DNA from: Candidatus Omnitrophota bacterium
GTDB taxonomy: Bacteria; Omnitrophota; Gorgyraeia; Aquiviventales; Aquiviventaceae
Assembly: GCA_016206585.1 (NCBI GenBank)
Contig: JACQRE010000158.1
Span: 1-63,693 of the forward strand
Reading direction: 5' to 3'
DNA: 63,693 nt
Shown: piece by piece, positions 3-47,294 of the stretch
How positions within the stretch are numbered: position 1 is the stretch's first letter
How the letters are laid out: every line of letters starts with the position of its first letter
Notes under the pieces: generated by a model
Database searches by the model: none
What the model was told of the DNA's origin: nothing
Seen by the model: only the letters and a program-made list of their open reading frames with translations
Translations under genes and position numbers: made by a program

Positions 3-176
3 GAGCTGGAGATCACCGACGTGAACAATGCGTACATCCAGCGCGGCCAGATGGCCTACGACATCCTGGACGGCTGGTGGACGGACGCGGGGCTGCCGGA
101 GACGCTCTACCGGGCGACGACGCTGGTGCGCGAGCGCGCCCTGCGCGAAGGCCGCGTCGTCGAGAGGGCGGGATGA
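3..176 (+). CDS. rfbA: glucose-1-phosphate thymidylyltransferase, C-terminal fragment (5' end lies outside the window)
   Basis: Frame 3 reads [57 protein letters not shown], an RmlA-type C-terminus. rfbB and rfbD follow. Confidence 0.75.
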
Positions 177-313
177 TCCCACCACCTGGCGGGTCCCGCC
201 AGAGGCGGGATGGCTCGCAGATGACCGTTTTAAACAGACTAAGCGAGCCCCGGCCGGTTGGCCTCAGGGCTCATGGGATTCGCCAACCGGCCGATCACCA
301 GGTGGTGGGATGA
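173..313 (+). repeat. ATGA-flanked intergenic element, copy 1: closing stem plus three hairpins
   Basis: The 14-bp stem 176-189 ATCCCACCACCTGG pairs perfectly with 298-311. Hairpins are 194-200/204-210, 212-218/243-249 and 251-262/282-293. ATGA occurs at 173-176 (stop of rfbA) and at 310-313 (start of rfbB). Confidence 0.8.
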
Positions 314-5813: not shown

Positions 5814-6113
5814 GTGACCAAACAAGCCCTCACCCAGAAGCAGCAGGTGGTCCTCGAGTTCATTCAGCGCTTCTTCACGGAGCACCGGAAGTCGCCGCTC
5901 ATCCGGGAGATCCAAACCGGCTGCCAGATCGCCTCGTACAAATCCGCCATTGACCGGCTCAACGCGCTGGAGCGCAAAGGGTTCATCAGGCGGGCGTCCA
6001 ATAAGCACCGGGGCATCCGGTTAGTGCGCCGGCTGGCCGTTGAAGCGCCGGTGGCCGCCGGAGGGCCGCCGCCGCTGGGCGAGGGAGCGGCCGAGGGAGC
6101 CTCGGTGGTATGA
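5814..6113 (+). CDS. LexA-like winged-helix DNA-binding protein lacking the S24 peptidase domain
   Basis: [29 protein letters not shown]...[17 protein letters not shown]...RGIRLV matches the LexA N-terminal domain. A VAAG motif follows. The protein ends after 99 aa. Confidence 0.75.
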
Positions 6114-6253
6114 TCCCACCACCTGCGCCCCCTTGCCGCAGGCAAGGCACGAAGCGCGCCATGACCAGTCTTGCGGATTTTCAACCGCGCGCTTCGGCGT
6201 GGCGGCCTGCTGTGACGACCATGAGCCGCCGCGAGGCGCAGGTGGTGGAATGA
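6110..6253 (+). repeat. ATGA-flanked intergenic element, copy 2
   Basis: Stem 6113-6128 pairs with 6236-6251 (15/16). Hairpins are 6131-6137/6141-6147, 6150-6159/6187-6196 and 6199-6206/6225-6232. ATGA occurs at 6110-6113 (stop) and at 6250-6253 (start). Confidence 0.8.
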
Positions 6254-7212: not shown

Positions 7213-7621
7213 TCGACCTCCGCGTCCCTGGACCGCGATCGGGCTCGGCCTCGTGTTCGGCCTCTATGCCGTGCTCCTCGTCGCCGCGGTGCGCACGGGA
7301 GCACACCAGGCGTTCACCGGATGGACGGCGAAGCTGCTCACACTCGGCGGCATCGCCCTCGGGCTGCTGCCGTGGGGGGCGTGGCTACGGCCCCGGATCG
7401 TGTGGGGCCTGGGGCTTCTGGGGTGCTGGGCGCTGGTGGCGTGCTACCTCGTCCTGCTGGCACCCATCGCGCTGGTGGTCCGTCTCATCGGCGATCCGCT
7501 CAGCCGCCGGCGGCCCGCCCCCCCACCAACCAGGTTGGTGGGGGGGCCCGCCGGCTCCTCGCACTGGCTGGCGCGGCCCCCGCTGCCCAATACGCTTGAC
7601 GCTGCCCGTGTTGAGTACTGA
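7205..7621 (+). CDS. small polytopic membrane protein, SxtJ-like
   Basis: Three or four hydrophobic spans, then [13 protein letters not shown]. It lies immediately upstream of a carbamoyltransferase, as SxtJ-type genes do. Confidence 0.6.
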
Positions 7622-7752
7622 ATCACCAATGACCAAATTCCAAACACCACATAATCACCAAACATCAATGCACCAATCACCAAACCGTTTGGTGATTCGG
7701 TCATTGGTCCATTGGTCATTATGTGGTGATTGGAATGTGGTGTTTGGTTATT
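7621..7752. repeat. long imperfect hairpin, CACCAAn/TTGGTGA family, copy A1
   Basis: ~65-nt arms around centre CAAAC-C-GTTTG (7681-7691). AT-richer than the flanks. Starts at the last base of the SxtJ-like stop codon. Confidence 0.8.
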
Positions 7753-11978: not shown

Positions 11979-11980
11979 CC

Positions 11981-12062
11981 ACAGCCAGCAACAAGCAACA
12001 AGCGACACGCAGCACGTGAAGAATATTCTTTCCGTGTTGCATGTCGCATGTTGCATGTCGCG
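11981..12062. repeat. heptamer hairpin, GCGACAA/GCAACAA family, copy B1
   Basis: Left arm is ...AGCAACAAGCAACAAGCGACACGCAGCACG. The core is the palindrome AAGAATATTCTT (12019-12030). Right arm is CGTGTTGCATGTCGCATGTTGCATGTCGCG. Confidence 0.75.
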
Positions 12063-13240: not shown

Positions 13241-13375
13241 GAATCACCAATGACCAAGCACCAAACACCACATAATCACCAATGGACCAATGACCGAATG
13301 ACCAAACGGTTTGGTGATTGGTGCATTGGTGTTTGGTGTTTATGTGGTGATTGGAATTTGGTGTTTGGTGATTCG
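13241..13375. repeat. CACCAAn-family hairpin, copy A2, inverted relative to A1
   Basis: It fills the whole stop-to-start gap. The centre is CAAAC-G-GTTTG, the reverse complement of the A1 centre. The reverse complement of its right arm matches the A1 left arm at 60 of 65 positions. Confidence 0.8.
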
Positions 13376-15233: not shown

Positions 15234-15238
15234 GCCCT

Positions 15239-15333
15239 CAGCGACATGCGACATGCGACAAGCAACACTTCAACCGCCGATCCTTTAAGAGCTTGGTGGT
15301 TCCGTGTTGCATGTTGCTTGTCGCTTGTCGCTG
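15239..15333. repeat. GCGACAn-family hairpin, copy B2
   Basis: 30-nt arms at 15239-15268 and 15304-15333 are complementary at 26 of 30 positions. The loop is 35 nt. Confidence 0.8.
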
Positions 15334-15343
15334 ATACTCCTGT

Positions 15344-16366
15344 ATGACGCGCACCCCACTCGTGACCGTCTGCGTTCCCACCTATAACCGCGCCGGGTAC
15401 CTGCGCCAGTGCCTGGATTCGATTCTCGCGCAGACGGTGGACGCGTTCGAGCTGCTGGTGCTCGACAACGCCTCGACCGATGACACCCCTGAGGTGGTGC
15501 GGCATCTCGCGGATCCGCGCGTGCGCTGCGTCCGGCACCCGGAGAACCTGGGACAGATCCCCAACGTCAACCGGGGGCTGGAGCTGGCGAGGGGCGAATT
15601 CGTGTGCGTCTGCCACGACGACGACGTGTGGGCGCCGCGGTTCCTGGAGCGGCAGCTCGAGGTGATGCGCCGCCACCCGTCGGTCGCACTCTCGCACACC
15701 GCCGTCTGGCTCTGCACGGAGGAGGGGGTCGCGCGCGGCGTCCATCGGGTGAGTGCCCGCGACTACCTGCTCAACGGACGCGAGGCCTTTCTGCGCTACC
15801 TGGCGTTCGGGCACGACGTGGTGTTTTCCACGACGATGGTCCGCCGCGCCTGCTACCAGCAGGCCGGGCCGTTCGATGCCCGCTACCTGTGCGCCGACTT
15901 CGACATGTGGCTGCGCCTCTCGCTGCAGGGCGATGTCGCCTATGTGGCCAAGCCGCTGGCCGGATACCGGGTCCACGGGGCGAGTGCGTCGAGCGGCATG
16001 ACCGCCGTGCGGTGGTTCCAGGAGTATTTCGAGATCTTCGACCGGGCGGTCGCCCTGGGCGCTCCGCAGCTGCCGGAGTTGCCAGCACTGGCCGGTCGGC
16101 TGCGCGCCCGCGCGAAGCGCTTCCAGGCCCGGCGCGCCCGCATCGAGGCGGCCGCGTGCCTCGCGGCGGGCCACGACGCCGCCGCGCAGGAGTATCTCGA
16201 CGCGGCGGCGCGCCTGGATCGCTCACTGCCCAGTTCGCTCGCCACCGGGGCGTTGCGCCTGTGCCGCAATGCCGCTGGCCGCAGCGTGCTGAGTGGGATC
16301 AAGGCGGTACGACGTCGAGTACGCTCAGCGACAAGCGACAAGCGACAAGCAACAGTTACGCAATAG
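15344..16366 (+). CDS. GT2-family glycosyltransferase
   Basis: VTVCVPTYNRAGYLRQCLDSILAQT, LVLDNASTDDT, CHDDDVW. Confidence 0.9.
   Translation: MTRTPLVTVCVPTYNRAGYLRQCLDSILAQTVDAFELLVLDNASTDDTPEVVRHLADPRVRCVRHPENLGQIPNVNRGLELARGEFVCVCHDDDVWAPRFLERQLEVMRRHPSVALSHTAVWLCTEEGVARGVHRVSARDYLLNGREAFLRYLAFGHDVVFSTTMVRRACYQQAGPFDARYLCADFDMWLRLSLQGDVAYVAKPLAGYRVHGASASSGMTAVRWFQEYFEIFDRAVALGAPQLPELPALAGRLRARAKRFQARRARIEAAACLAAGHDAAAQEYLDAAARLDRSLPSSLATGALRLCRNAAGRSVLSGIKAVRRRVRSATSDKRQATVTQ
16326..16355. repeat. solo arm of the GCGACAA family (no partner arm)
   Basis: GCGACAA x3 at 16328-16348, then GCAACAG. It encodes the last residues (SDKRQATVTQ) of the GT2. Confidence 0.65.
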
Positions 16367-16383
16367 CCAAAAGCGGGTCATCA

Positions 16384-17358
16384 ATGAAAACGGCATTACT
16401 GGAATGGCTGGCGTGTCCCGCGTGCCGGGGCACGCTGCGCCTGGCACAGCCGGTGCACCAGGGCGAGGAGATCGTCTCCGGCGCGCTGGGCTGCGAGAGC
16501 TGCTCGCGCGCCTACCCGATCGTGCGGGGGATCCCCCGCTTCGTCGCCGACGACAGCTACGCCGGCAACTTCAGCTTCGAGTGGAACCGGTTCCAGACCA
16601 CCCAGCTCGACAGCCGGCAGCAGCGCGGCGAGTCGGAGCGGCGCTTCCGGCAGAGCCTCGACATCCCGCTGGAGCAGCTGAAGGGGCAGCTCGTCCTGGA
16701 CGCCGGCTGCGGGATGGGCCGCTTCGCCGAGATCGCCCTCCATCACGGGGCCACGGTCGTGGCGATGGACCTCAGCTTCGCGGTGGACGCGGCGGCGAAG
16801 AACCTCTCGCCGCAGCCCGACGCTCACGTGGTCCAGGCGAACCTCTTCGCCCTGCCGTTCCGCCCTGAGACGTTCGACCTGATCTACAGCCTCGGCGTGC
16901 TGCACCACACGCCCAACCCCCGGAAGGCGTTCGAGGGGCTGGTGGAGCTGCTCAAGACCGGCGGGAAGATCAGCGTGACGCTCTACAGCGGCTATAACAC
17001 CGTCTACGTGCGCTCCACGAGCTTCTGGCGGTTCGCGCTGAAGCGGCTCCCCGGCCGCTGGCTCTACCGCCTGTCGCACCTCGCCATCCCGTACTACCAC
17101 CTCTGCCGGATCCCGCTGCTCGGGTTGGGGTTTCAGGCGCTGTTTCCCATCAGCATGCACCCGGATCCCGAATGGCGGGTCCTCGACACCTTCGACTGCT
17201 ACAGCCCCACGTACCAGTCCTACCACACCCACCACGAAGTGTTCCGGTGGTTCAAGGAGGCGAACTTGACCGGCGTCGAAGTGCTGGAACCAGGCATCTC
17301 GTTAATTGGTGGAAAGCGCACAGTCAGCGACAAGCGACAAGCAACAAGCAGCACTTGA
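16384..17358 (+). CDS. class I SAM methyltransferase with an N-terminal Trm112-like zinc ribbon
   Basis: LEWLACPACRG...CESCSRAYPIVRGIPRF, then VLDAGCGMGRF and LLKTGGKI. Confidence 0.85.
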   Translation: MKTALLEWLACPACRGTLRLAQPVHQGEEIVSGALGCESCSRAYPIVRGIPRFVADDSYAGNFSFEWNRFQTTQLDSRQQRGESERRFRQSLDIPLEQLKGQLVLDAGCGMGRFAEIALHHGATVVAMDLSFAVDAAAKNLSPQPDAHVVQANLFALPFRPETFDLIYSLGVLHHTPNPRKAFEGLVELLKTGGKISVTLYSGYNTVYVRSTSFWRFALKRLPGRWLYRLSHLAIPYYHLCRIPLLGLGFQALFPISMHPDPEWRVLDTFDCYSPTYQSYHTHHEVFRWFKEANLTGVEVLEPGISLIGGKRTVSDKRQATSST

Positions 17359-17400
17359 AGAATATTCTCACGTGTTGCCTGTCGCTTGTTGCCTGTTGCT
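17321..17400. repeat. GCGACAA-family hairpin, copy B3
   Basis: Left arm CAGTCAGCGACAAGCGACAAGCAACAAGCAGCAC, core TGAAGAATATTCT, right arm CGTGTTGCCTGTCGCTTGTTGCCTGTTGCT. Confidence 0.75.
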
Positions 17401-18575: not shown

Positions 18576-19372
18576 ATCCAATCTCCCAGTCGGTGTCGGT
18601 GGTGATCCCGGCGTACAACGAAGCCAAGCGGATTGGGCTCACGCTCGACCGCATCGAGCGGTTCTTCTCCGGCCAGGCCAGGCCGTTTGAGGTCATCGTG
18701 GTGGATGACGGCAGCGCCGATGAGACCTCCGCCGTGGTCGAACGCTTCTGCGCCCGGCAGCCGGACCGGTTCCGGCTGCTGCGGCAGGGGCGGAATGCCG
18801 GCAAGGGGGCGTGCGTCCGGCGCGGCATGCTGGAGGCGACGGGGCAGCTGCGCCTCTTTTCGGACGCCGACCTCTCGACGCCGATCGAGGAGCTGGGCAA
18901 GCTCATGGCCGCGCTGGGCGAGGGCTGCGACATCGCCATCGGCTCCCGCGGCCTGCCGCAGTCGGAGCTCGTGCTGCGCCAGCCCAAGTACCGCGAGCTG
19001 ATGGGGCAGGGGCTGAACCGGCTGCTGCGGCTGATGCGGCTCACGCGGTTCCACGACACGCAGTGCGGCTTCAAACTGTTCTCCCGCGAGGCGGCCCAGG
19101 CGATCTTTGCGCGGCAGACGATCGACCGTTACGGGTTCGACGTGGAGATCCTCTGGCTGGCCGAGCGGATGGGGTTTCGCATCGCCGAAGTGCCGGTGCG
19201 GTGGATCCACGACGCGGACAGCCGCGTGCAGCCCGTGCAGGACGGCCTGCGGACGCTCTCCGACGTGCTGCGGCTGTCGCTGCGCCGCGATGGCGCCGTG
19301 CTGCCGCCGGCGCGCCGGGAGACGCGCTCGCCGTCGGATGCTGCCGCGCACGAGGCGCAGGTGCGGCGATGA
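18572..19372 (+). CDS. GT2 glycosyltransferase (polyprenyl-phosphate hexosyltransferase-like)
   Basis: VSVVIPAYNEAKRIG, VIVVDDGSADET, FSDADLS, DTQCGFKLF. ATGA overlap with the upstream gene. Confidence 0.88.
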   Translation: MNPISQSVSVVIPAYNEAKRIGLTLDRIERFFSGQARPFEVIVVDDGSADETSAVVERFCARQPDRFRLLRQGRNAGKGACVRRGMLEATGQLRLFSDADLSTPIEELGKLMAALGEGCDIAIGSRGLPQSELVLRQPKYRELMGQGLNRLLRLMRLTRFHDTQCGFKLFSREAAQAIFARQTIDRYGFDVEILWLAERMGFRIAEVPVRWIHDADSRVQPVQDGLRTLSDVLRLSLRRDGAVLPPARRETRSPSDAAAHEAQVRR

Positions 19373-21779: not shown

Positions 21780-22975
21780 TCACCGTCTTGCATCTCTCGC
21801 ACTGCCTCAACCGCTACGACTATATCGACGCGGTGATCCGGCACGCGGACCCCGCGCAGTTCCGCATGCTGGCCGCGACGCTGACGGATGACGGCTCGGT
21901 GCGTCCCGGGGCGGCGCCGTATCCGGTGACCGTGTTGGGCGTGCGCGCCCGGACCCAGTGGCCGGCTGCGGCGGCGGCGCTGCGGCGCCTGTGCCGGAGC
22001 GAGCGCGTGGACGTCGTCCATACGCACAATCTCGATTCGACGGCGATCGGCGCCTTCGCCGCGCTCGGCATCCGCCGGGTGCGGCTCGTCATCGGGCGGC
22101 ACTACGCGGATGCGCTCTATCAGCTGCGCCCCGCCTGGAAGTGCCGCGCCCTCCTGGCGCTGGAAGGCTGGTGCAACCGCCGCGCGGCGCGCCTCATCGC
22201 GCCCTCCTCCATGGTGCGCGCGATCCTCGTGGAGCGTCAGCGCGTGCCGGCGCGGCGTGTCGCGCAGATTCCGTACGGGTTCGACTTCGCCAAGCATCAG
22301 GCGTCCGTGGATGCGCCGGCACGGCTGCGGCGCGAGCTGGGGCTGGAGGGGGCGGCCGTGCTGGGCAGCTTCTCGCGGTTGAACGCCGATAAAGGGCACG
22401 CCGATCTGTTGCGCGCCTTCGCCCGGCTGCAGCCGGGGCGGCCCACGCTGCGCCTGCTCCTCGTCGGGGAGGGGAACGTCAGGCCGCGCCTTGAGGCGCT
22501 GGCCCGGGAGCTCGGCGTGCAGGAGCGGGTGCGGTTCGCCGGGTGGCGCGCGGATGTCATCGACCTCATGGCGATGGCGGATGTGGTCGCGCACCCCTCG
22601 CTCCACGAGGCGTTCAGCCAGGTGATGGTGGAGGCGCTGGCCATGGGCAAGCCGCTCGTGATCACCGACGTGAGCGGTGTCGCCGATGTCGTGCGGGATG
22701 GCTGGAACGGGCTCATCGTCCCGAAGGCGGATCCGGCGGCGCTGGCGGCGGCGGTCACGCGGCTGCTCGACCATCCCGAGGAGGCCGCCGCAATGGGCGC
22801 GCGCGGGCGCGCGCGGGTGCGCCGCGAGCTGGACATCCACGTCATCATCACACAGTACGAAGCGGTCTATCGGAACGTGATGGGGCAGGAACAATCACCA
22901 AACACCAAATCTCAATCACCAAATAATCACCAAGATCCAATCACCAATGACCAAACAATTGAGGTCATCGCGTAG
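21776..22975 (+). CDS. GT4-family glycosyltransferase
   Basis: VAHPSLHEAFSQVMVEALAMGKPLVITDVSG. The last ~30 aa are a translation of the left arm of repeat A3. Confidence 0.88.
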   Translation: MITVLHLSHCLNRYDYIDAVIRHADPAQFRMLAATLTDDGSVRPGAAPYPVTVLGVRARTQWPAAAAALRRLCRSERVDVVHTHNLDSTAIGAFAALGIRRVRLVIGRHYADALYQLRPAWKCRALLALEGWCNRRAARLIAPSSMVRAILVERQRVPARRVAQIPYGFDFAKHQASVDAPARLRRELGLEGAAVLGSFSRLNADKGHADLLRAFARLQPGRPTLRLLLVGEGNVRPRLEALARELGVQERVRFAGWRADVIDLMAMADVVAHPSLHEAFSQVMVEALAMGKPLVITDVSGVADVVRDGWNGLIVPKADPAALAAAVTRLLDHPEEAAAMGARGRARVRRELDIHVIITQYEAVYRNVMGQEQSPNTKSQSPNNHQDPITNDQTIEVIA

Positions 22976-23041
22976 TTGTTTGGTGATTGGTGTTTGGTTA
23001 TTGGAGCTTATTTGGTGATTGGAATTTGGTGATTGGTGATT
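22893..23041. repeat. CACCAAn-family hairpin, copy A3
   Basis: ~66-nt arms at 22893-22958 and 22976-23041, with a 17-nt loop. The stop codon of the upstream GT4 lies in the loop. Confidence 0.8.
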
Positions 23042-42401: not shown

Positions 42402-44321
42402 ATGTGCGGCATCGCAGGGATCGTCCGGTTCGACGGCCGCCCCGTCGAAGAAGAGCTCCTTGAGCGGATGACGCAGATGCTGGCCCACCGGGGCCCGGAT
42501 GGGCAGGGCGTCCAGGCGTTCCGGGCCGGGGCGTTCCAGGCGGGGTTCGGGCATGCGCGGCTGAAGATCATCGATCTCTCCGACGCCGCCGCGCAGCCGA
42601 TGGTGAACGAGGACGGCACGATCGCGGTCGTCTTCAACGGCGAGATCTACAACTACCGCGAACTGCGCCAGGAGCTCCTCCGGCCCGGGATCGCGTGCCG
42701 CACGAGCTCCGACACCGAAGTGATCCTGCGGCTCTACGAGGCCGAGGGGTCCCGCGGGGTGCGGCGGCTCGAGGGGATGTTCGCTTTGGCGATCTGGGAT
42801 GCCCGCACCGGATGCGTCCTCCTCGCCAGGGACCGGGTGGGGAAGAAGCCGCTCTTCTACTACGCCACCCCCGCGCTGGCCGCGTTCGCCTCGGAGATCA
42901 AAGCGCTCGTGTGCCATCCCGACGTCCCGGCCGAGGTCGATGCGGAAGCCCTCCCCGCCTTCTTCCTCTACGGGTATGTGCCCAGCCCCAGGACGGTCTA
43001 CCGCGGGATCCGCAAGCTGGGGCCGGGCGAGCTGATGACCATCCAGGCTGACGGCCGCATCACGCGCGAATCGTACTGGAACCTGGAACTGCCACCGGAG
43101 GCCGACGCCCGTCGCGCGCCCTCGGACGCCGAGGCGATCGCGCGCGTGCGCGAGCTGATGACGGCGGCGGTGCGCCGCCGGATGATCGCCGACGTGCCGC
43201 TCGGGGCCTTCCTGAGCGGCGGGATCGACTCGACGATCGTCGTCGGGCTCATGAGCCAAGCCAGCCGTCGGCCGGTCCGGACCTTCAGCATCGGATTTTC
43301 AAGCGACCCGCGGTTCGACGAGACGCGCTACGCCCGGCTCGCCTCAACCCGGTTCAACACCGCGCACACCGAGTTCGTCGTGGAGCCCTCGGCGATCGAG
43401 CTGGTCGAGCGGCTGGTGTGGCACCACGACGGGCCCTTCGCCGACTCCTCGGCGATCCCGACGTACCTGCTCGCCCAACTGACCCGGCAGCACGTGACGG
43501 TCGCCCTCACCGGCGACGGCGGCGATGAGGTCTTCGCCGGCTACCTACGGTTCTACGCGGCCATCCTCTGCGAGCGCATCCCCTCGCCGGTGCGGCAGGC
43601 GGTCCATCGGCTGCTGGGGGCTACCCCGGAGCGCGCCGCCCACCGTAGCCTCTGGCGCCGGGTGCAGAAGTTCGCCGGGAGTGCGGCCCTGCCGTTTGCG
43701 GAGCGCTTCACCCGCTGGATCTCGGTCTTCTACGAGGACTTGCCCGAGCTGGTTCCCGGCGGGCTGGGCACCGGGGTCGTGCAGGAGGCGCTGCGCCCGG
43801 TCCATGCGGCGCTCGAGGAAGCGGGCGGAGCCTCCCCCCTGTCGCGGCTGCTCGCGCTGAACCTCAAGACCTACCTCCTCGATGACCTGCTGGTCAAGAT
43901 GGATCGCTGCACGATGGCGCACGGGCTGGAGGCGCGCTCGCCGTTTCTGGACCGTGAGCTGCTGGAATACGCCTTCTCGCTGCCGGATGCGATGAAGCTG
44001 CGGTGGGGCCGCACGAAGGTGATCCTCCGCCGCGCGTTCGCCGATCTGGTGCCGCCGGAGATCCTGCAGCGCGGCAAGATGGGGTTCGGCGTGCCGTTGC
44101 AGGCGTGGTTCGCGCGCGACCTGCGCGACTATCTTCAGGATGTGCTGCTGGGTCCCGAGGCGCGGCTGCGCGCGCATGTGGACCACGCGTACGTGCGGCG
44201 GCTCTGGGACGCCCACGTGCGTGGGGAGGCGGATCACTCCCACCGGCTCTGGACGCTCCTCACCTTTGAGGTGTGGCTGCGGCAGGGGCTGCGGCAGCCT
44301 GCGGGGATGGCGCTTCGATGA
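42402..44321 (+). CDS. asparagine synthase (glutamine-hydrolysing) family amidotransferase
   Basis: MCGIAGIV, HRGPDG, FLSGGIDST. Confidence 0.92.
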   Translation: MCGIAGIVRFDGRPVEEELLERMTQMLAHRGPDGQGVQAFRAGAFQAGFGHARLKIIDLSDAAAQPMVNEDGTIAVVFNGEIYNYRELRQELLRPGIACRTSSDTEVILRLYEAEGSRGVRRLEGMFALAIWDARTGCVLLARDRVGKKPLFYYATPALAAFASEIKALVCHPDVPAEVDAEALPAFFLYGYVPSPRTVYRGIRKLGPGELMTIQADGRITRESYWNLELPPEADARRAPSDAEAIARVRELMTAAVRRRMIADVPLGAFLSGGIDSTIVVGLMSQASRRPVRTFSIGFSSDPRFDETRYARLASTRFNTAHTEFVVEPSAIELVERLVWHHDGPFADSSAIPTYLLAQLTRQHVTVALTGDGGDEVFAGYLRFYAAILCERIPSPVRQAVHRLLGATPERAAHRSLWRRVQKFAGSAALPFAERFTRWISVFYEDLPELVPGGLGTGVVQEALRPVHAALEEAGGASPLSRLLALNLKTYLLDDLLVKMDRCTMAHGLEARSPFLDRELLEYAFSLPDAMKLRWGRTKVILRRAFADLVPPEILQRGKMGFGVPLQAWFARDLRDYLQDVLLGPEARLRAHVDHAYVRRLWDAHVRGEADHSHRLWTLLTFEVWLRQGLRQPAGMALR

Positions 44322-45595
44322 TGAAACGCGTGAAGGGGTGGATGGCCGTGCAGCTCCTCGTGACCGGCACAGGCGTGGGGCTGGGGCTCTGGCTCGTGCA
44401 CGTCGGGACCCTTCGAGGGGCCGGAGGCAGCGACCGGCTGCGCGGCACGCCGGAGAGCGAGACGATCCTGGGTCTTGGCGGCGACGACGAGATTGACGGA
44501 CTCGCCGGCCGGGATTTGCTCTACGGCCACGACGGCGATGACGTCCTGAGGGGCGGCGACGGCGATGATCTCCTGGTGGGCCTCCAGGGGAGCGACCGGC
44601 TCGAAGGGGGTGCTGGGGCCGATCTGCTGAATGGGGGCGGCGGGGATGATACGCTCGATGGCGGCGCGGGCGATGACGTCCTGAGCGGGCTGGACGGCCA
44701 CGACACGCTCATCGGCGGAGGCGGCAACGACCGGCTGGAGGCGGATGCCGGCAACGACCGCTTGGAGGGCGGGCCGGGCGATGACGCGCTCTTGGCGGGA
44801 CCTGGAGACGATGTGCTCATCGGGTCGGCAGGCGACGACACGCTGAGTGCCGGCGAGGGCGATGACCGCCTCGACGGAGGGGCCGGCGATGATCAGCTGT
44901 TCGGGGACGCCGGCAACGACCGTCTCGATGGCGCAGACGGGCACGATCTCCTTGAGGGCGGCGAGGGCGCGGATCAGCTGGCGGGGGGTCCGGGGAACGA
45001 CCGCTTGGACGGCGGTTCCGGCGATGATGAGTTGGACGGCGGCGCGGGCCACGATCTCCTGGACGGCGGCGCGGGCCGCGACCGGTTGATTGGCGGATCC
45101 GGCGATGACATCGTGCGGGGGCTGGGTGGCGACGATGTCCTCGAAGGGGGCGACGGCAACGACCAGCTGCTTGATGAGGTGGGTGGCAACGATACATTGG
45201 ACGGCGGGACGGGCGATGACCGGCTCTCCGGCTACCTGGGCGATGACCATCTGCTCGGCGGGGAAGGGGATGATCGCTTGGACGGCGACAAGGGCGACGA
45301 CCGCCTCGACGGCGGGGCGGGCGATGACCAGCTCCAGTTGGGCGATGGCGATGACCATGGTTCTGACGGAACGGGCTCGGATCAGGTCGAGGGCGGGCCG
45401 GGCAGCGATACGATTGAGCTCGTGCAGGATGGCACGGCTGACCGCGTGTCCGCAGGGTCCGGCGATGACGCGATGTGGGTTCATTTCGACAGCGGGCCCG
45501 ATGAGATTGTCTGTGGGGAGGGCACGGATACGGTGGATCTCCATGGCAACACGCAGGCGCGCGTGGCGGCGGATTGCGAGCAGGTGATCCCCTGA
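44318..45595 (+). CDS. RTX-type calcium-binding repeat protein with an N-terminal hydrophobic anchor or signal
   Basis: Roughly three dozen GGxGxDxLx nonapeptides. The N-terminus is MMKRVKGWMAVQLLVTGTGVGLGLWLV. Confidence 0.88.
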   Translation: MMKRVKGWMAVQLLVTGTGVGLGLWLVHVGTLRGAGGSDRLRGTPESETILGLGGDDEIDGLAGRDLLYGHDGDDVLRGGDGDDLLVGLQGSDRLEGGAGADLLNGGGGDDTLDGGAGDDVLSGLDGHDTLIGGGGNDRLEADAGNDRLEGGPGDDALLAGPGDDVLIGSAGDDTLSAGEGDDRLDGGAGDDQLFGDAGNDRLDGADGHDLLEGGEGADQLAGGPGNDRLDGGSGDDELDGGAGHDLLDGGAGRDRLIGGSGDDIVRGLGGDDVLEGGDGNDQLLDEVGGNDTLDGGTGDDRLSGYLGDDHLLGGEGDDRLDGDKGDDRLDGGAGDDQLQLGDGDDHGSDGTGSDQVEGGPGSDTIELVQDGTADRVSAGSGDDAMWVHFDSGPDEIVCGEGTDTVDLHGNTQARVAADCEQVIP

Positions 45596-45796: not shown

Positions 45797-46423
45797 ATGA
45801 ACCCTGACGCCTATCGCGAACTCAAAGTGCTCGAAGAGCTGTCCCACAATGCCGATCACACCCAGCGGCATCTGGCCAAGCAACTTGGGGTCGCACTGGG
45901 CCTGACCAACCTCATGATCAAGCGGCTGGTCCGGAAGGGCTATGTCAAGATCGTGAACCTCCAGCGCAACCGCATTCGCTATCTGGTCACCCCCCAGGGC
46001 ATTGCCGAGAAGACCCGCCTCACCTACGAGTACCTGGAGTACTCCCTCTATCTGTATCGCCGCGTCCGCGAGGTGCTCCAGCAGCGCATGCGCGAGGTCG
46101 GCGAGCGCGGCGGGAAGGACATCGTGCTCTTCGGGGTCGGGGAGCTCGCCGAGGTCGCCTACCTGACGATCCGGGGGCAGGGGCTCAACCTCGTGGGGGT
46201 CGTGGATGACCGGGTGGCCGGCACGACGTTTCTGGGGCTGGCCGTGTCGCCCTCCGAGGCGCTGCCGGCCCTGCAGTTCGACGCCGTGATCGTCAGCTCC
46301 CTGGATAACGAGTTGGTCGGACTGAACAGGCTCCAGGAACTGGGAATCGACCGGGCACGCATCATCGTCATGGAGCAGCGCGGCTCGCAGATTCACCCGG
46401 TCCTGCCGGGAGCCAGCCGATGA
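45797..46423 (+). CDS. MarR-like winged-helix regulator fused to a Rossmann-like C-terminal domain
   Basis: TQRHLAKQLGVALGLTNLMIKRLVRKGYVKI, then DIVLFGVGELAEVAYL...VGVVDD. Confidence 0.7.
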   Translation: MNPDAYRELKVLEELSHNADHTQRHLAKQLGVALGLTNLMIKRLVRKGYVKIVNLQRNRIRYLVTPQGIAEKTRLTYEYLEYSLYLYRRVREVLQQRMREVGERGGKDIVLFGVGELAEVAYLTIRGQGLNLVGVVDDRVAGTTFLGLAVSPSEALPALQFDAVIVSSLDNELVGLNRLQELGIDRARIIVMEQRGSQIHPVLPGASR

Positions 46424-46560
46424 TCCCACCACCTGCGCCGGCCACGCCGGTGGCGTGGCCGCGAGGCGCTCGAATGAGTCGACACGTCATGAGAGTGATG
46501 CAACTACTGAACGGCCTCGCCACGGCGGCGTGCCGCCGTGGGGCGCAGGTGGTGGGATGA
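46420..46560 (+). repeat. ATGA-flanked intergenic element, copy 3
   Basis: Perfect 17-bp stem 46423-46439 / 46542-46558. Hairpins are 46440-46448/46452-46460, 46461-46467/46514-46520 and 46521-46529/46532-46540. ATGA occurs at 46420-46423 and 46557-46560. Confidence 0.85.
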
Positions 46561-47294
46561 GCCAACGCACTGGGCGTGCGAGGCGCCTTCGCTGGCTGCT
46601 CATCGGGTCGCTCGCGCTGACAGCGCTCATCGGGTCGTTGACCGCCACGCTCACGACCCGCCAGGGCGTGAACTTCCAGGTCACCGCCGCCCCGCTTCCT
46701 GCCTACGTCAAGGCGATCGATTTCCTCCATCGCGACGCGCACTACTACCTCCTTGCCCGGGAGATCACCCGGGGCCTGCCGGCGGGCCGCCGCGCGGCGG
46801 CCGACCGCGACCGCGCGCTGGCCGTCTTCCGCTGGACGCAGGAGCACCTGCGCCCGACACCGGAAGGCTGGCCCGTCGTCGATGACCACATCCTGCACAT
46901 CATCATCCGGGGACACGGTGTCGCGGATCAGTACGCGGATGTCTTCACTACCCTCTCGACATACGCTGGCGTGCCGGCCTTCTGGCAGCCGATCCGTGAG
47001 CCGGCCTCGGGCCGGACGCTCATCCTCTCCTATGCGAAGGTGGACGGCCGCTGGGCCGTCTTCGACGTGTTCCACGGGGTGGTCTTCAGCCGGCCGAGCG
47101 GGGAGCTCATCAGCGCGGAGGAATTGGCCGCGGACCCCGCGCTGGCGGATGTCGCCTCCGGAAGCCTCCCCTACCGCCAGCTCTTGACGGGTTATCGCGC
47201 CCCGGTGGTGCCGCGTCCCTTGCGCGCCGAACTGCAGATGCCGTGGCCCCGGGCGGTCCACACGTTGCATCAGATGGTTGGAGGCACCAGGTAA
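46557..47294 (+). CDS. membrane-anchored transglutaminase-like protein, probably catalytically inactive
   Basis: N-terminal transmembrane span. RGHGVADQYADVFTTLSTYAGVPA resembles the transglutaminase core but has Ala where the catalytic Cys is expected. Confidence 0.5.
   Translation: MSQRTGRARRLRWLLIGSLALTALIGSLTATLTTRQGVNFQVTAAPLPAYVKAIDFLHRDAHYYLLAREITRGLPAGRRAAADRDRALAVFRWTQEHLRPTPEGWPVVDDHILHIIIRGHGVADQYADVFTTLSTYAGVPAFWQPIREPASGRTLILSYAKVDGRWAVFDVFHGVVFSRPSGELISAEELAADPALADVASGSLPYRQLLTGYRAPVVPRPLRAELQMPWPRAVHTLHQMVGGTR

Follow-up and report, generated by a model that had tools for sequence, protein, structure and literature searches.

The junction investigated here lies at positions 46420-46560 of contig JACQRE010000158.1 of a Candidatus Omnitrophota bacterium (GenBank assembly GCA_016206585.1), a stretch of 63,693 nucleotides that was analysed as a whole and is called the window. 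At this junction a gene for a small MarR-like regulator is followed by a gene for a transglutaminase-like protein, and a structured element with an ATGA tetranucleotide at each end separates the two. Both genes were found where the original prediction, made from the letters of the DNA, had placed them, with the stop codon of the regulator gene in the left ATGA and the start codon of the transglutaminase-like gene in the right one (Table 1). The predicted anatomy of the element also matched the sequence in its coordinates, its 17-bp closing stem and its hairpins H1, H2 and H3. The left arm ATCCCACCACCTGCGCC is the perfect reverse complement of the right arm (0 mismatches, both strands), and RNAfold places the 141-nt RNA in a four-way junction of these stems at -95.4 kcal/mol, compared with -62.4 +/- 3.7 kcal/mol for shuffled sequences (z = -9.0; 0 of 200 shuffles equal). 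With up to 3 mismatches allowed, the window contains the 17-mer arm five times, where 0.54 occurrences are expected. As had been claimed, the element is one of three copies with common ends and architecture, the others lying at 173-313 (copy 1) and 6110-6253 (copy 2). Copy 3, at the junction described, is very probably a non-autonomous mobile insertion at ATGA that resembles a MITE (a transposable element of the miniature inverted-repeat type). Overall, it is probably best explained as a MITE-like element whose short internal open reading frame (ORF), here called the mini-ORF, restores translational coupling across the insertion.

Architecture and insertion sites of the element family

A scan of a genome collection with the 14-mer GATCCCACCACCTG proved too unspecific, since nearly all of its 119 loci were chance matches; the only true elements were in L031 and L119, both from Candidatus Omnitrophota metagenome-assembled genomes (MAGs), and in L057, from a further MAG. 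A two-ended pattern gave at least 120 loci in metagenomes and no element in viral contigs, hence no sign of phage carriage. From the retrieved loci 157 elements were extracted; 138 could be oriented by their flanks, 125 unique copies entered the length and frame counts, and 114 unique copies were folded. The family thus sampled comprises more than 150 copies, from Candidatus Omnitrophota MAGs and metagenomes. Its canonical form is 5'-ATGA-TCCCACCACCTG...CAGGTGGTGGGA-TGA-N, with perfect terminal inverted repeats of 12-17 bp (TCCCACCACCTG(CGCC) and its complement). Most copies are 110-152 nt long, the G+C content ranges from 0.42 to 0.81, and the sole ORF of 39-50 codons encodes a peptide that is not conserved. 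A literature search on the end sequences returned unrelated primer matches only, and a family of translated MITE-like elements at ATGA start codons is apparently both widespread and undescribed.

The fold is shared by copies whose interiors differ. A closing stem with exactly three hairpins was obtained for 91 of the 114 folded elements, and the closing stem measures 15-16 bp in 97 of them. Where the ends deviate from the canonical form, both arms are altered together, as compensatory double changes. An alignment of the 125-nt subfamily (L127, L131, L138, L145, L153, L162, L168, L186, L193, L196 and L232) has nearly invariant closing and hairpin stems, almost randomised loops and compensatory changes in five pairs; neutral decay of inserted copies would not be expected to leave such a pattern. 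Within subfamilies the two orientations occur at a biased ratio of 23:2. The pattern of stems, ends and orientation could reflect selection on transposition competence, selection for keeping open a frame that is often closed in flipped copies, or a role at the RNA level.

Copies of unrelated interior that share a four-way junction might also be read as a conserved, non-mobile structured RNA gene or ribozyme in intergenic regions, but this is extremely improbable. The Rfam search of the whole window gave 0 matches at the gathering threshold; relaxing the limit to E below 10 brought nothing but noise, the best hit being a miRNA model with 17 bits against a 100-bit threshold. There are no conserved unpaired nucleotides, the loops are hypervariable, some orthologous sites have the element and others lack it, and the genes downstream of it are unrelated. 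Both strands fold equally well: 52 copies are more stable as the sense strand and 60 as the antisense strand; with folding energies indistinguishable, a strand-specific structured RNA was dropped as a candidate.

Variant ends are illustrated by an element of 115 nt at positions 1390-1504 of L242 (JACPSR010000142, Candidatus Omnitrophica), which ends in TCCCACGCCCTAGCAG and CTGCCAGGGCGTGGGA and lies upstream of a homolog of the window's transglutaminase-like gene. The family is therefore broader than the exact 12-nt ends used in the scan. The frame of the L242 element runs straight into the downstream ATG, giving a possible 37-residue N-terminal extension, and a GGAGG stands 5 nt before the left ATG; such in-frame fusion to the downstream gene is found only as a minority variant.

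Six element-free homologous loci were identified, five of them by joining the flanks of each element and searching the other loci. In each, the junction itself reads (A/G)TGA, and the downstream gene begins with ATG or GTG (Table 1). At the occupied sites the left and right flanking triplets co-vary: TGA/TGA is dominant, and 8 concordant pairs are other than TGA (TAA/TAA, TGG/TGG, TTA/TTA), which looks like a 3-bp target duplication. Because the element-free homologs carry a plain (A/G)TGA and the flanking triplets co-vary, the copies are regarded as insertions, probably made by a putative transposase with a 3-bp staggered cut. For copy 3, the orthologous pair of genes in another Omnitrophica MAG (L243, PCVX01000026) shows a plain ATGA overlap; the regulators are 45% identical and the transglutaminase-like proteins 55%, the latter aligning from residue 1. 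Copy 3 is therefore taken as an insertion and not as an ancestral part of the control of the operon. The public gene call in L243 starts the transglutaminase-like gene at 1501, whereas homology begins 51 nt earlier, at an ATG at 1450 that overlaps the upstream stop. Start sites beside ATGA overlaps or elements may be mis-called in Omnitrophota MAGs.

The right end restores an ATG in 133 of the 138 orientable copies. In 120 of the 138 this ATG opens a downstream ORF that is at least 60 codons long or is truncated by the end of the contig, whereas a long upstream ORF ends on the left TGA in only 83 of the 138. Thus, the constant feature is the downstream start codon and not the stop/start overlap.

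This bears on the proposal in the original prediction that the element determines how much of a regulator is made relative to the protein downstream, put forward because small regulator genes precede two of the three window copies. Those genes were confirmed (HTH_24/MarR-like before copy 3, LexA_DNA_bind before copy 2), and the bridging of stop and start holds for copy 3. The idea of a regulator-ratio device was not supported; the element is an insertion. About 40% of the copies adjoin no upstream stop codon, only a downstream start codon, and the orthologous regulator/transglutaminase-like pair manages without the element. Neither flank is enriched for regulators. The 77 downstream proteins scanned from other copies fall into 135 Pfam families, including ribosomal L14, NAD-dependent DNA ligase, PurA (adenylosuccinate synthetase), glycine-cleavage P protein, PlsX and RuvA, and the 63 upstream proteins into 97, including ribosomal S17 and L16, an RpoB (RNA polymerase beta) domain, DnaB, RuvC and FtsK. 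The element thus occurs in operons that are essential and highly expressed, and regulators are not its particular neighbours.

The invariant position after the tetranucleotide ATGA, the extreme secondary structure with subterminal hairpins and the conserved stems would also suit mobility that relies not on a cut-and-paste DDE transposase with a 3-bp duplication but on a single-strand, structure-dependent route, in which an IS200/IS605-type Y1 transposase, a REP-associated tyrosine transposase (RAYT) or a site-specific recombinase acts on the cloverleaf and the right TGA is part of the element. No transposase partner was found in the approximately 0.8 Mb of loci to which the search was limited, and this too would fit such a route. 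The route is nevertheless considered unlikely. The left and right flank triplets co-vary, the ends are true terminal inverted repeats, and one subfamily occurs in both orientations relative to ATGA, unlike the strand-specific insertion of IS200/IS605 elements.

The mini-ORF and its proposed role in translation

Among the 125 unique copies, 102 (82%) have a length divisible by 3 when counted from left ATG to right TGA. The frame used (MIPPP...QVVG*) is free of stops in 95 of these 102 (93%), with 0.0041 stops per codon, whereas each of the five remaining frames is open in 37-52%, with 0.021-0.037 stops per codon; among these is the flipped element's equivalent frame, with 48% open. The largest subfamily (125 nt, 13 members) has the used frame open in every copy and stops in the unused orientation in about half. 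Its two reversed copies show the mirror pattern, again with the used frame open.

Tandem pairs of elements share the same 1-nt insertion at 12 junctions, GGTGCGGATGA replacing GGTGGGATGA, by which the stop is removed. At 10 of these 12 junctions the two mini-ORFs are fused in frame, open back to an in-frame ATGATCCC. The upstream members of tandems in L122, L127, L141, L145, L155, L165, L169, L183, L185, L188 and L201 end in CAGGTGGTGCGGATGA, the single extra C being a would-be bulge in the stem. Recurrence of this C in upstream members with differing interiors may reflect convergence or a dimer-type subfamily.

These counts indicate that the element is under selection for an open frame and not for a protein. 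The reading as a functional small protein was ruled out, the peptides being unrelated between subfamilies. Selection of the PPP motif as such was weakened by the variant ends CCA-TCA-CCT, CCA-CGC-CCT and CCA-CTA-CCT, which interrupt the PPP run and code for PSP, PRP, PLP and similar. MIPPP follows from the canonical end and the variant ends lack it, and selection for polyproline is therefore not demonstrated.

The right arm of the closing stem suggests why an open frame would matter. The stem alone amounts to about -38 kcal/mol and contains a Shine-Dalgarno (SD)-like AGGUGG and the AUG; the SD-like AGGUGGUGG in the 3' arm pairs with a generic anti-SD at -10.7 kcal/mol. As this SD-like sequence belongs to the 3' arm, together with the first two bases (A and T) of the ATG, the downstream ribosome-binding site is buried in the stem, and at this stability free initiation at the downstream start should be blocked. 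Translation of the mini-ORF would start either with a ribosome that ends on the overlapping upstream UGA or by initiation at the old ribosome-binding site and ATG. Passage through the whole element would unwind the 5' arm, the hairpins and the closing stem. The stop UGA of the mini-ORF overlaps the regenerated AUG (AUGA, -4 nt), where either reinitiation or loading of a fresh 30S subunit on the unfolded site could follow, and the insertion would be close to translationally transparent.

Both of these are recognised ways in which translation can be coupled, by unfolding of the RNA or by reinitiation with a spacing of -4 nt (PMC12548453, PMC6728339); termination-reinitiation at ATGA overlaps is described in PMC6728339. 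On the comparative sequence evidence, translation of the mini-ORF is likely to couple the downstream gene to what precedes it. Such coupling would account for the length periodicity, the depletion of stops, the frame-fusing insertion in dimers and the tolerance of the element in essential operons; with near-transparency, the persistence of copies even in operons for ribosomal proteins and polymerase would be understandable.

The same burial of the SD-like sequence and AUG in a stable stem could instead serve the host, as a recruited cis-acting translational throttle whose copies are kept for regulation and tie downstream expression to upstream translation, ribosome helicase activity, elongation factor P (EF-P) or temperature. 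MIPPP stands at the start of every mini-ORF with canonical ends, and polyproline runs stall ribosomes without EF-P. Conserved stems with drifting loops and the bias in orientation would also agree with a throttle. It is doubtful, however, given that the flanking genes are functionally unrelated, that orthologous sites lack the element, that the PPP run is broken in variant ends and that no common condition or regulon is apparent.

The original prediction had further suggested RNase III or RNase E cleavage in the long stem. As an element of mRNA processing or stability, with an RNase III cut or a block to exonucleases, it would uncouple the abundance of the upstream and downstream cistrons. Such a role has a precedent in the Correia elements of Neisseria. 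The perfect stem of 15-17 bp, lengthened by stacked hairpins, would be a suitable substrate, and the element is co-oriented within operons and has no promoter or terminator signal; a scan around copy 3 found no promoter-like or terminator-like sites. Yet processing leaves unexplained the 3-nt periodicity in length, the stop-free frame and the 1-nt insertion that fuses the frames of dimers. The absence of strand asymmetry in folding also speaks against it, and a translated mini-ORF would hold the duplex melted. This explanation is accordingly rated as very unlikely, below the throttle.

Several observations weigh against a MITE-like insertion whose mini-ORF couples translation, or limit its reach. 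Conservation of the ends is overstated, because the elements were sampled by exact 12-nt ends. The 3-bp duplication is deduced from the 8 concordant variant flanks and from orthologs of only 72-77% identity, and no empty/filled polymorphism of high identity was found among the retrieved loci. Nor did a search of the approximately 0.8 Mb of loci for orphan or long-range pairs of these ends reveal an autonomous copy or an enclosed transposase; no dedicated search was made beyond these loci. About 18% of the unique copies are not divisible by 3 and 7% of the divisible ones contain a stop, several of these exceptions standing before real genes; full read-through is therefore favoured and not obligatory, and unfolding of the 5' arm alone may be enough in such copies. 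The enrichment of SD-like motifs ahead of the left ATG is no more than modest, with 33 of 118 copies carrying one there and 15 of 118 in a control interval. Finally, the invariance of the stems and the 23:2 orientation could mean selection on the structure itself, beyond mere tolerance.

An extended version of the coupling explanation was also considered. It would make the family a phylum-wide transposon that homes to start sites, recognised as an ATGA after a ribosome-binding site that resembles its own right end AGGTGGTGGGATGA, and whose persistence depends on being translated. Hundreds of genes per Omnitrophota genome would then be read only after a MIPPP mini-ORF, through a cloverleaf of about -90 kcal/mol. 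This version is speculative and rather unlikely. If true, it would imply a genome-wide layer of expression, driven by a putative transposase and including ribosomal-protein and RNA-polymerase operons, that depends on EF-P and on the helicase activity of the ribosome.

Window copies, neighbouring genes and further repeats

The features of copy 3, the other two window copies and the element-free sites are collected in Table 1. All three window copies have the common ends ATGATCCCACCACCTG and CAGGTGGTGG(G/A)ATGA, a closing stem and three hairpins, and the frame from ATG to TGA is open in each (141, 144 and 141 nt; MIPPP...QVV(G/E)*). Their interiors are unrelated to one another. In copy 1 only the first hairpin is similar to a 134-nt subfamily, and no relatives of the interiors of copies 2 and 3 were found in the element sample. 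The homologs of the 245-residue protein downstream of copy 3 have the transglutaminase core domain PF01841.

Table 1. Coordinates of the element at 46420-46560, its neighbours, the other window copies and homologous element-free sites
Feature	Position	Strand	Description
Upstream gene	45797..46423	+	208-aa winged-helix HTH_24/MarR-like protein (Pfam); 45% identical to the L243 ortholog
Left ATGA	46420..46423	+	ATG 46420-46422, mini-ORF start; TGA 46421-46423, stop of upstream gene and apparent left TGA duplicate
Mini-ORF	46420..46560	+	46 codons and stop, MIPPPAPATPVAWPRGARMSRHVMRVMQLLNGLATAACRRGAQVVG*; -4 nt overlap with upstream stop and with downstream start
Closing stem, 5' arm (left terminal inverted repeat)	46423..46439	+	ATCCCACCACCTGCGCC; codes for mini-ORF residues IPPPAP
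Element core, copy 3	46424..46557		134 nt, TCCCACCACCTG... to ...CAGGTGGTGGGA; terminal inverted repeats form the closing stem
Hairpin H1	46440..46460	+	GGCCACGCC-ggt-GGCGTGGCC; 9-bp stem, 3-nt loop
Hairpin H2	46461..46520	+	7-bp stem, arms 46461-46467 and 46514-46520; 46-nt loop of lower G+C
Hairpin H3	46521..46540	+	CACGGCGGC-gt-GCCGCCGTG; 9-bp stem, 2-nt loop (RNAfold version: 8 pairs, 4-nt loop)
Closing stem, 3' arm (right terminal inverted repeat)	46542..46558	+	Includes SD-like AGGTGGTGG and A and T of the downstream ATG
Downstream gene	46557..47294	+	245-aa transglutaminase-like protein HY599_06550, Candidatus Omnitrophica
Apparent right TGA duplicate	46558..46560	+	Mini-ORF stop, overlapping downstream ATG 46557-46559 (second ATGA 46557-46560)
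Copy 1	173..313	+	141 nt from ATG to TGA; between rmlA-like 3' end and dTDP-glucose 4,6-dehydratase-like gene; empty homologous site in L153
Copy 2	6110..6253	+	144 nt from ATG to TGA; right end GGTGGAATGA; between LexA_DNA_bind small protein and NAD-dependent epimerase/dehydratase gene
Empty site for copy 1			GGCGGCATGAGAGTC in L153; stop/start overlap
Empty site for L153:3608			CGTGAAG in L231
Empty site for L231:5163			TAGGCGATGAAAGGC in L153; start codon without overlap
Empty site for L119			CAATGACGG in L174
Empty site for L178			CACATGAAAATC in L238; plsX start
Empty site for copy 3			GCGGATGAGCAC in L243 (Omnitrophica MAG PCVX01000026); plain ATGA overlap

At another ATGA in the window, positions 19340-19372 carry GAGGCGCAGGTGCGGCGATGAATCC, which is similar to the element's right end, with 3 mismatches to the 17-mer, and has no left partner. 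This motif may be a remnant, a coincidental match or a natural start-site context similar to the end of the element.

The window contains two other kinds of palindromic repeat. AT-rich intergenic repeats at 7620-7752, 13242-13374 and 22893-23041 are built of short CACCAA(A/T)-like units, for example AATCACCAATGACCAAATTCCAAACACCACATAATCACCAA and its complement. Both within a site and from one site to another, their arms (41-133 nt) show 85-89% complementarity, and they are conspicuous in a contig of 68% G+C; they are a separate family from the ATGA element. The second kind, at 11980-12061, 15237-15331, 16324-16369 and 17319-17400, has GCGACAAGC/GCAACAAGC units with complementary units opposite and an AT-rich centre GAAGAATATTCT, and is located in the gaps of a polysaccharide gene cluster. 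In addition, some 200 nt upstream of the gene for the copy 3 regulator lies a 440-residue ORF (44273-45595) made up almost wholly of RTX calcium-binding nonapeptide repeats, with 13 Pfam HemolysinCabind stretches and 27-nt periodic repeats in the DNA.

Comparison with known systems

If the coupling explanation is correct, this would be the first inverted-repeat (MITE-type) element with comparative evidence both for nucleotide-exact placement at start codons and for selection for translation through itself. It would account for many annotated "intergenic" gaps and likely mis-called starts in Omnitrophota MAGs, and it would mean that a selfish element can colonise essential operons if the flow of ribosomes is preserved. 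Copies with a ribosome-binding site buried in an exceptionally stable stem would be natural test cases for models of unfolding and reinitiation, and the element would offer a compact, portable coupling cassette usable in synthetic operons.

The closest parallel in strategy is given by the MIRUs, the interspersed repetitive units of mycobacteria. Each such unit is a direct repeat about 46-101 bp long, and many are arrayed as variable-number tandem repeats; they are without long terminal inverted repeats or a cloverleaf fold, and to our knowledge they are known only from mycobacteria. The element shares with them a short repeat at start codons or intercistronic junctions and a tolerated insertion whose internal ORF overlaps the flanking stop and start at -4 nt; it has ATGA at both ends, and 93% of the frames divisible by 3 are open. 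It is set apart by its described anatomy, that is, by terminal inverted repeats, a cloverleaf-like four-way junction, TGA duplications and an Omnitrophota host. A strategy described only for MIRUs would thereby be extended to an uncultivated phylum and to another class of element. According to a 2025 review (PMC12548453, citing Supply et al. 1997), MIRUs appear to insert at start codons, with the impact on host genes minimised by an internal ORF coupled at -4 nt.

By structure the element resembles the prokaryotic MITEs Correia, ERIC, RUP, Nezha and Chunjie (PMC10969869), which are small, have terminal inverted repeats, direct repeats and a stable hairpin, lack a transposase gene, occur in many copies and are co-transcribed with their neighbours. 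It likewise is small and carries no transposase gene, has terminal inverted repeats, shows an apparent target duplication with empty sites, and is present in many copies at unrelated loci. It differs in its nucleotide-exact placement at ATGA and in a length periodicity and stop depletion that point to selection for read-through. The 2024 review of prokaryotic MITEs (PMC10969869) contains neither the phrase "start codon" nor "stop codon", and none of the MITEs it describes is placed at a start codon or has a coupling ORF. In-frame intragenic MITEs are known from the same review, namely RPE, ERIC and QMITE1. The Rickettsia palindromic elements (RPEs; Ogata et al. 2000, summarised in PMC10969869) are mobile palindromes of about 100-150 bp with translatable length and frame that persist in coding contexts, as the present element does. 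They lie inside genes and become part of a host protein, whereas the element is normally a separate mini-ORF at a gene boundary, with its own start and stop.

Among single-strand systems, REP sequences (repetitive palindromes outside genes) and REPINs, mobilised by RAYT, are short extragenic palindromes or doublets without duplication; the element differs by its exact start-codon site, its duplicated TGA and its terminal repeats of 12-17 bp. Elements derived from IS200/IS605 insert strand-specifically 3' of a fixed tetranucleotide and have neither duplication nor terminal inverted repeats, in contrast to the two orientations, co-varying flanks and true terminal repeats found here. Lastly, natural translational coupling (PMC12548453, PMC6728339) likewise involves a ribosome-binding site that is sequestered in structure and opened by an upstream ribosome, and an AUGA at -4 nt. 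The element would differ from it in being a portable, transposed cassette, in which coupling would act twice in series, from the upstream gene to the mini-ORF and from the mini-ORF to the downstream gene.

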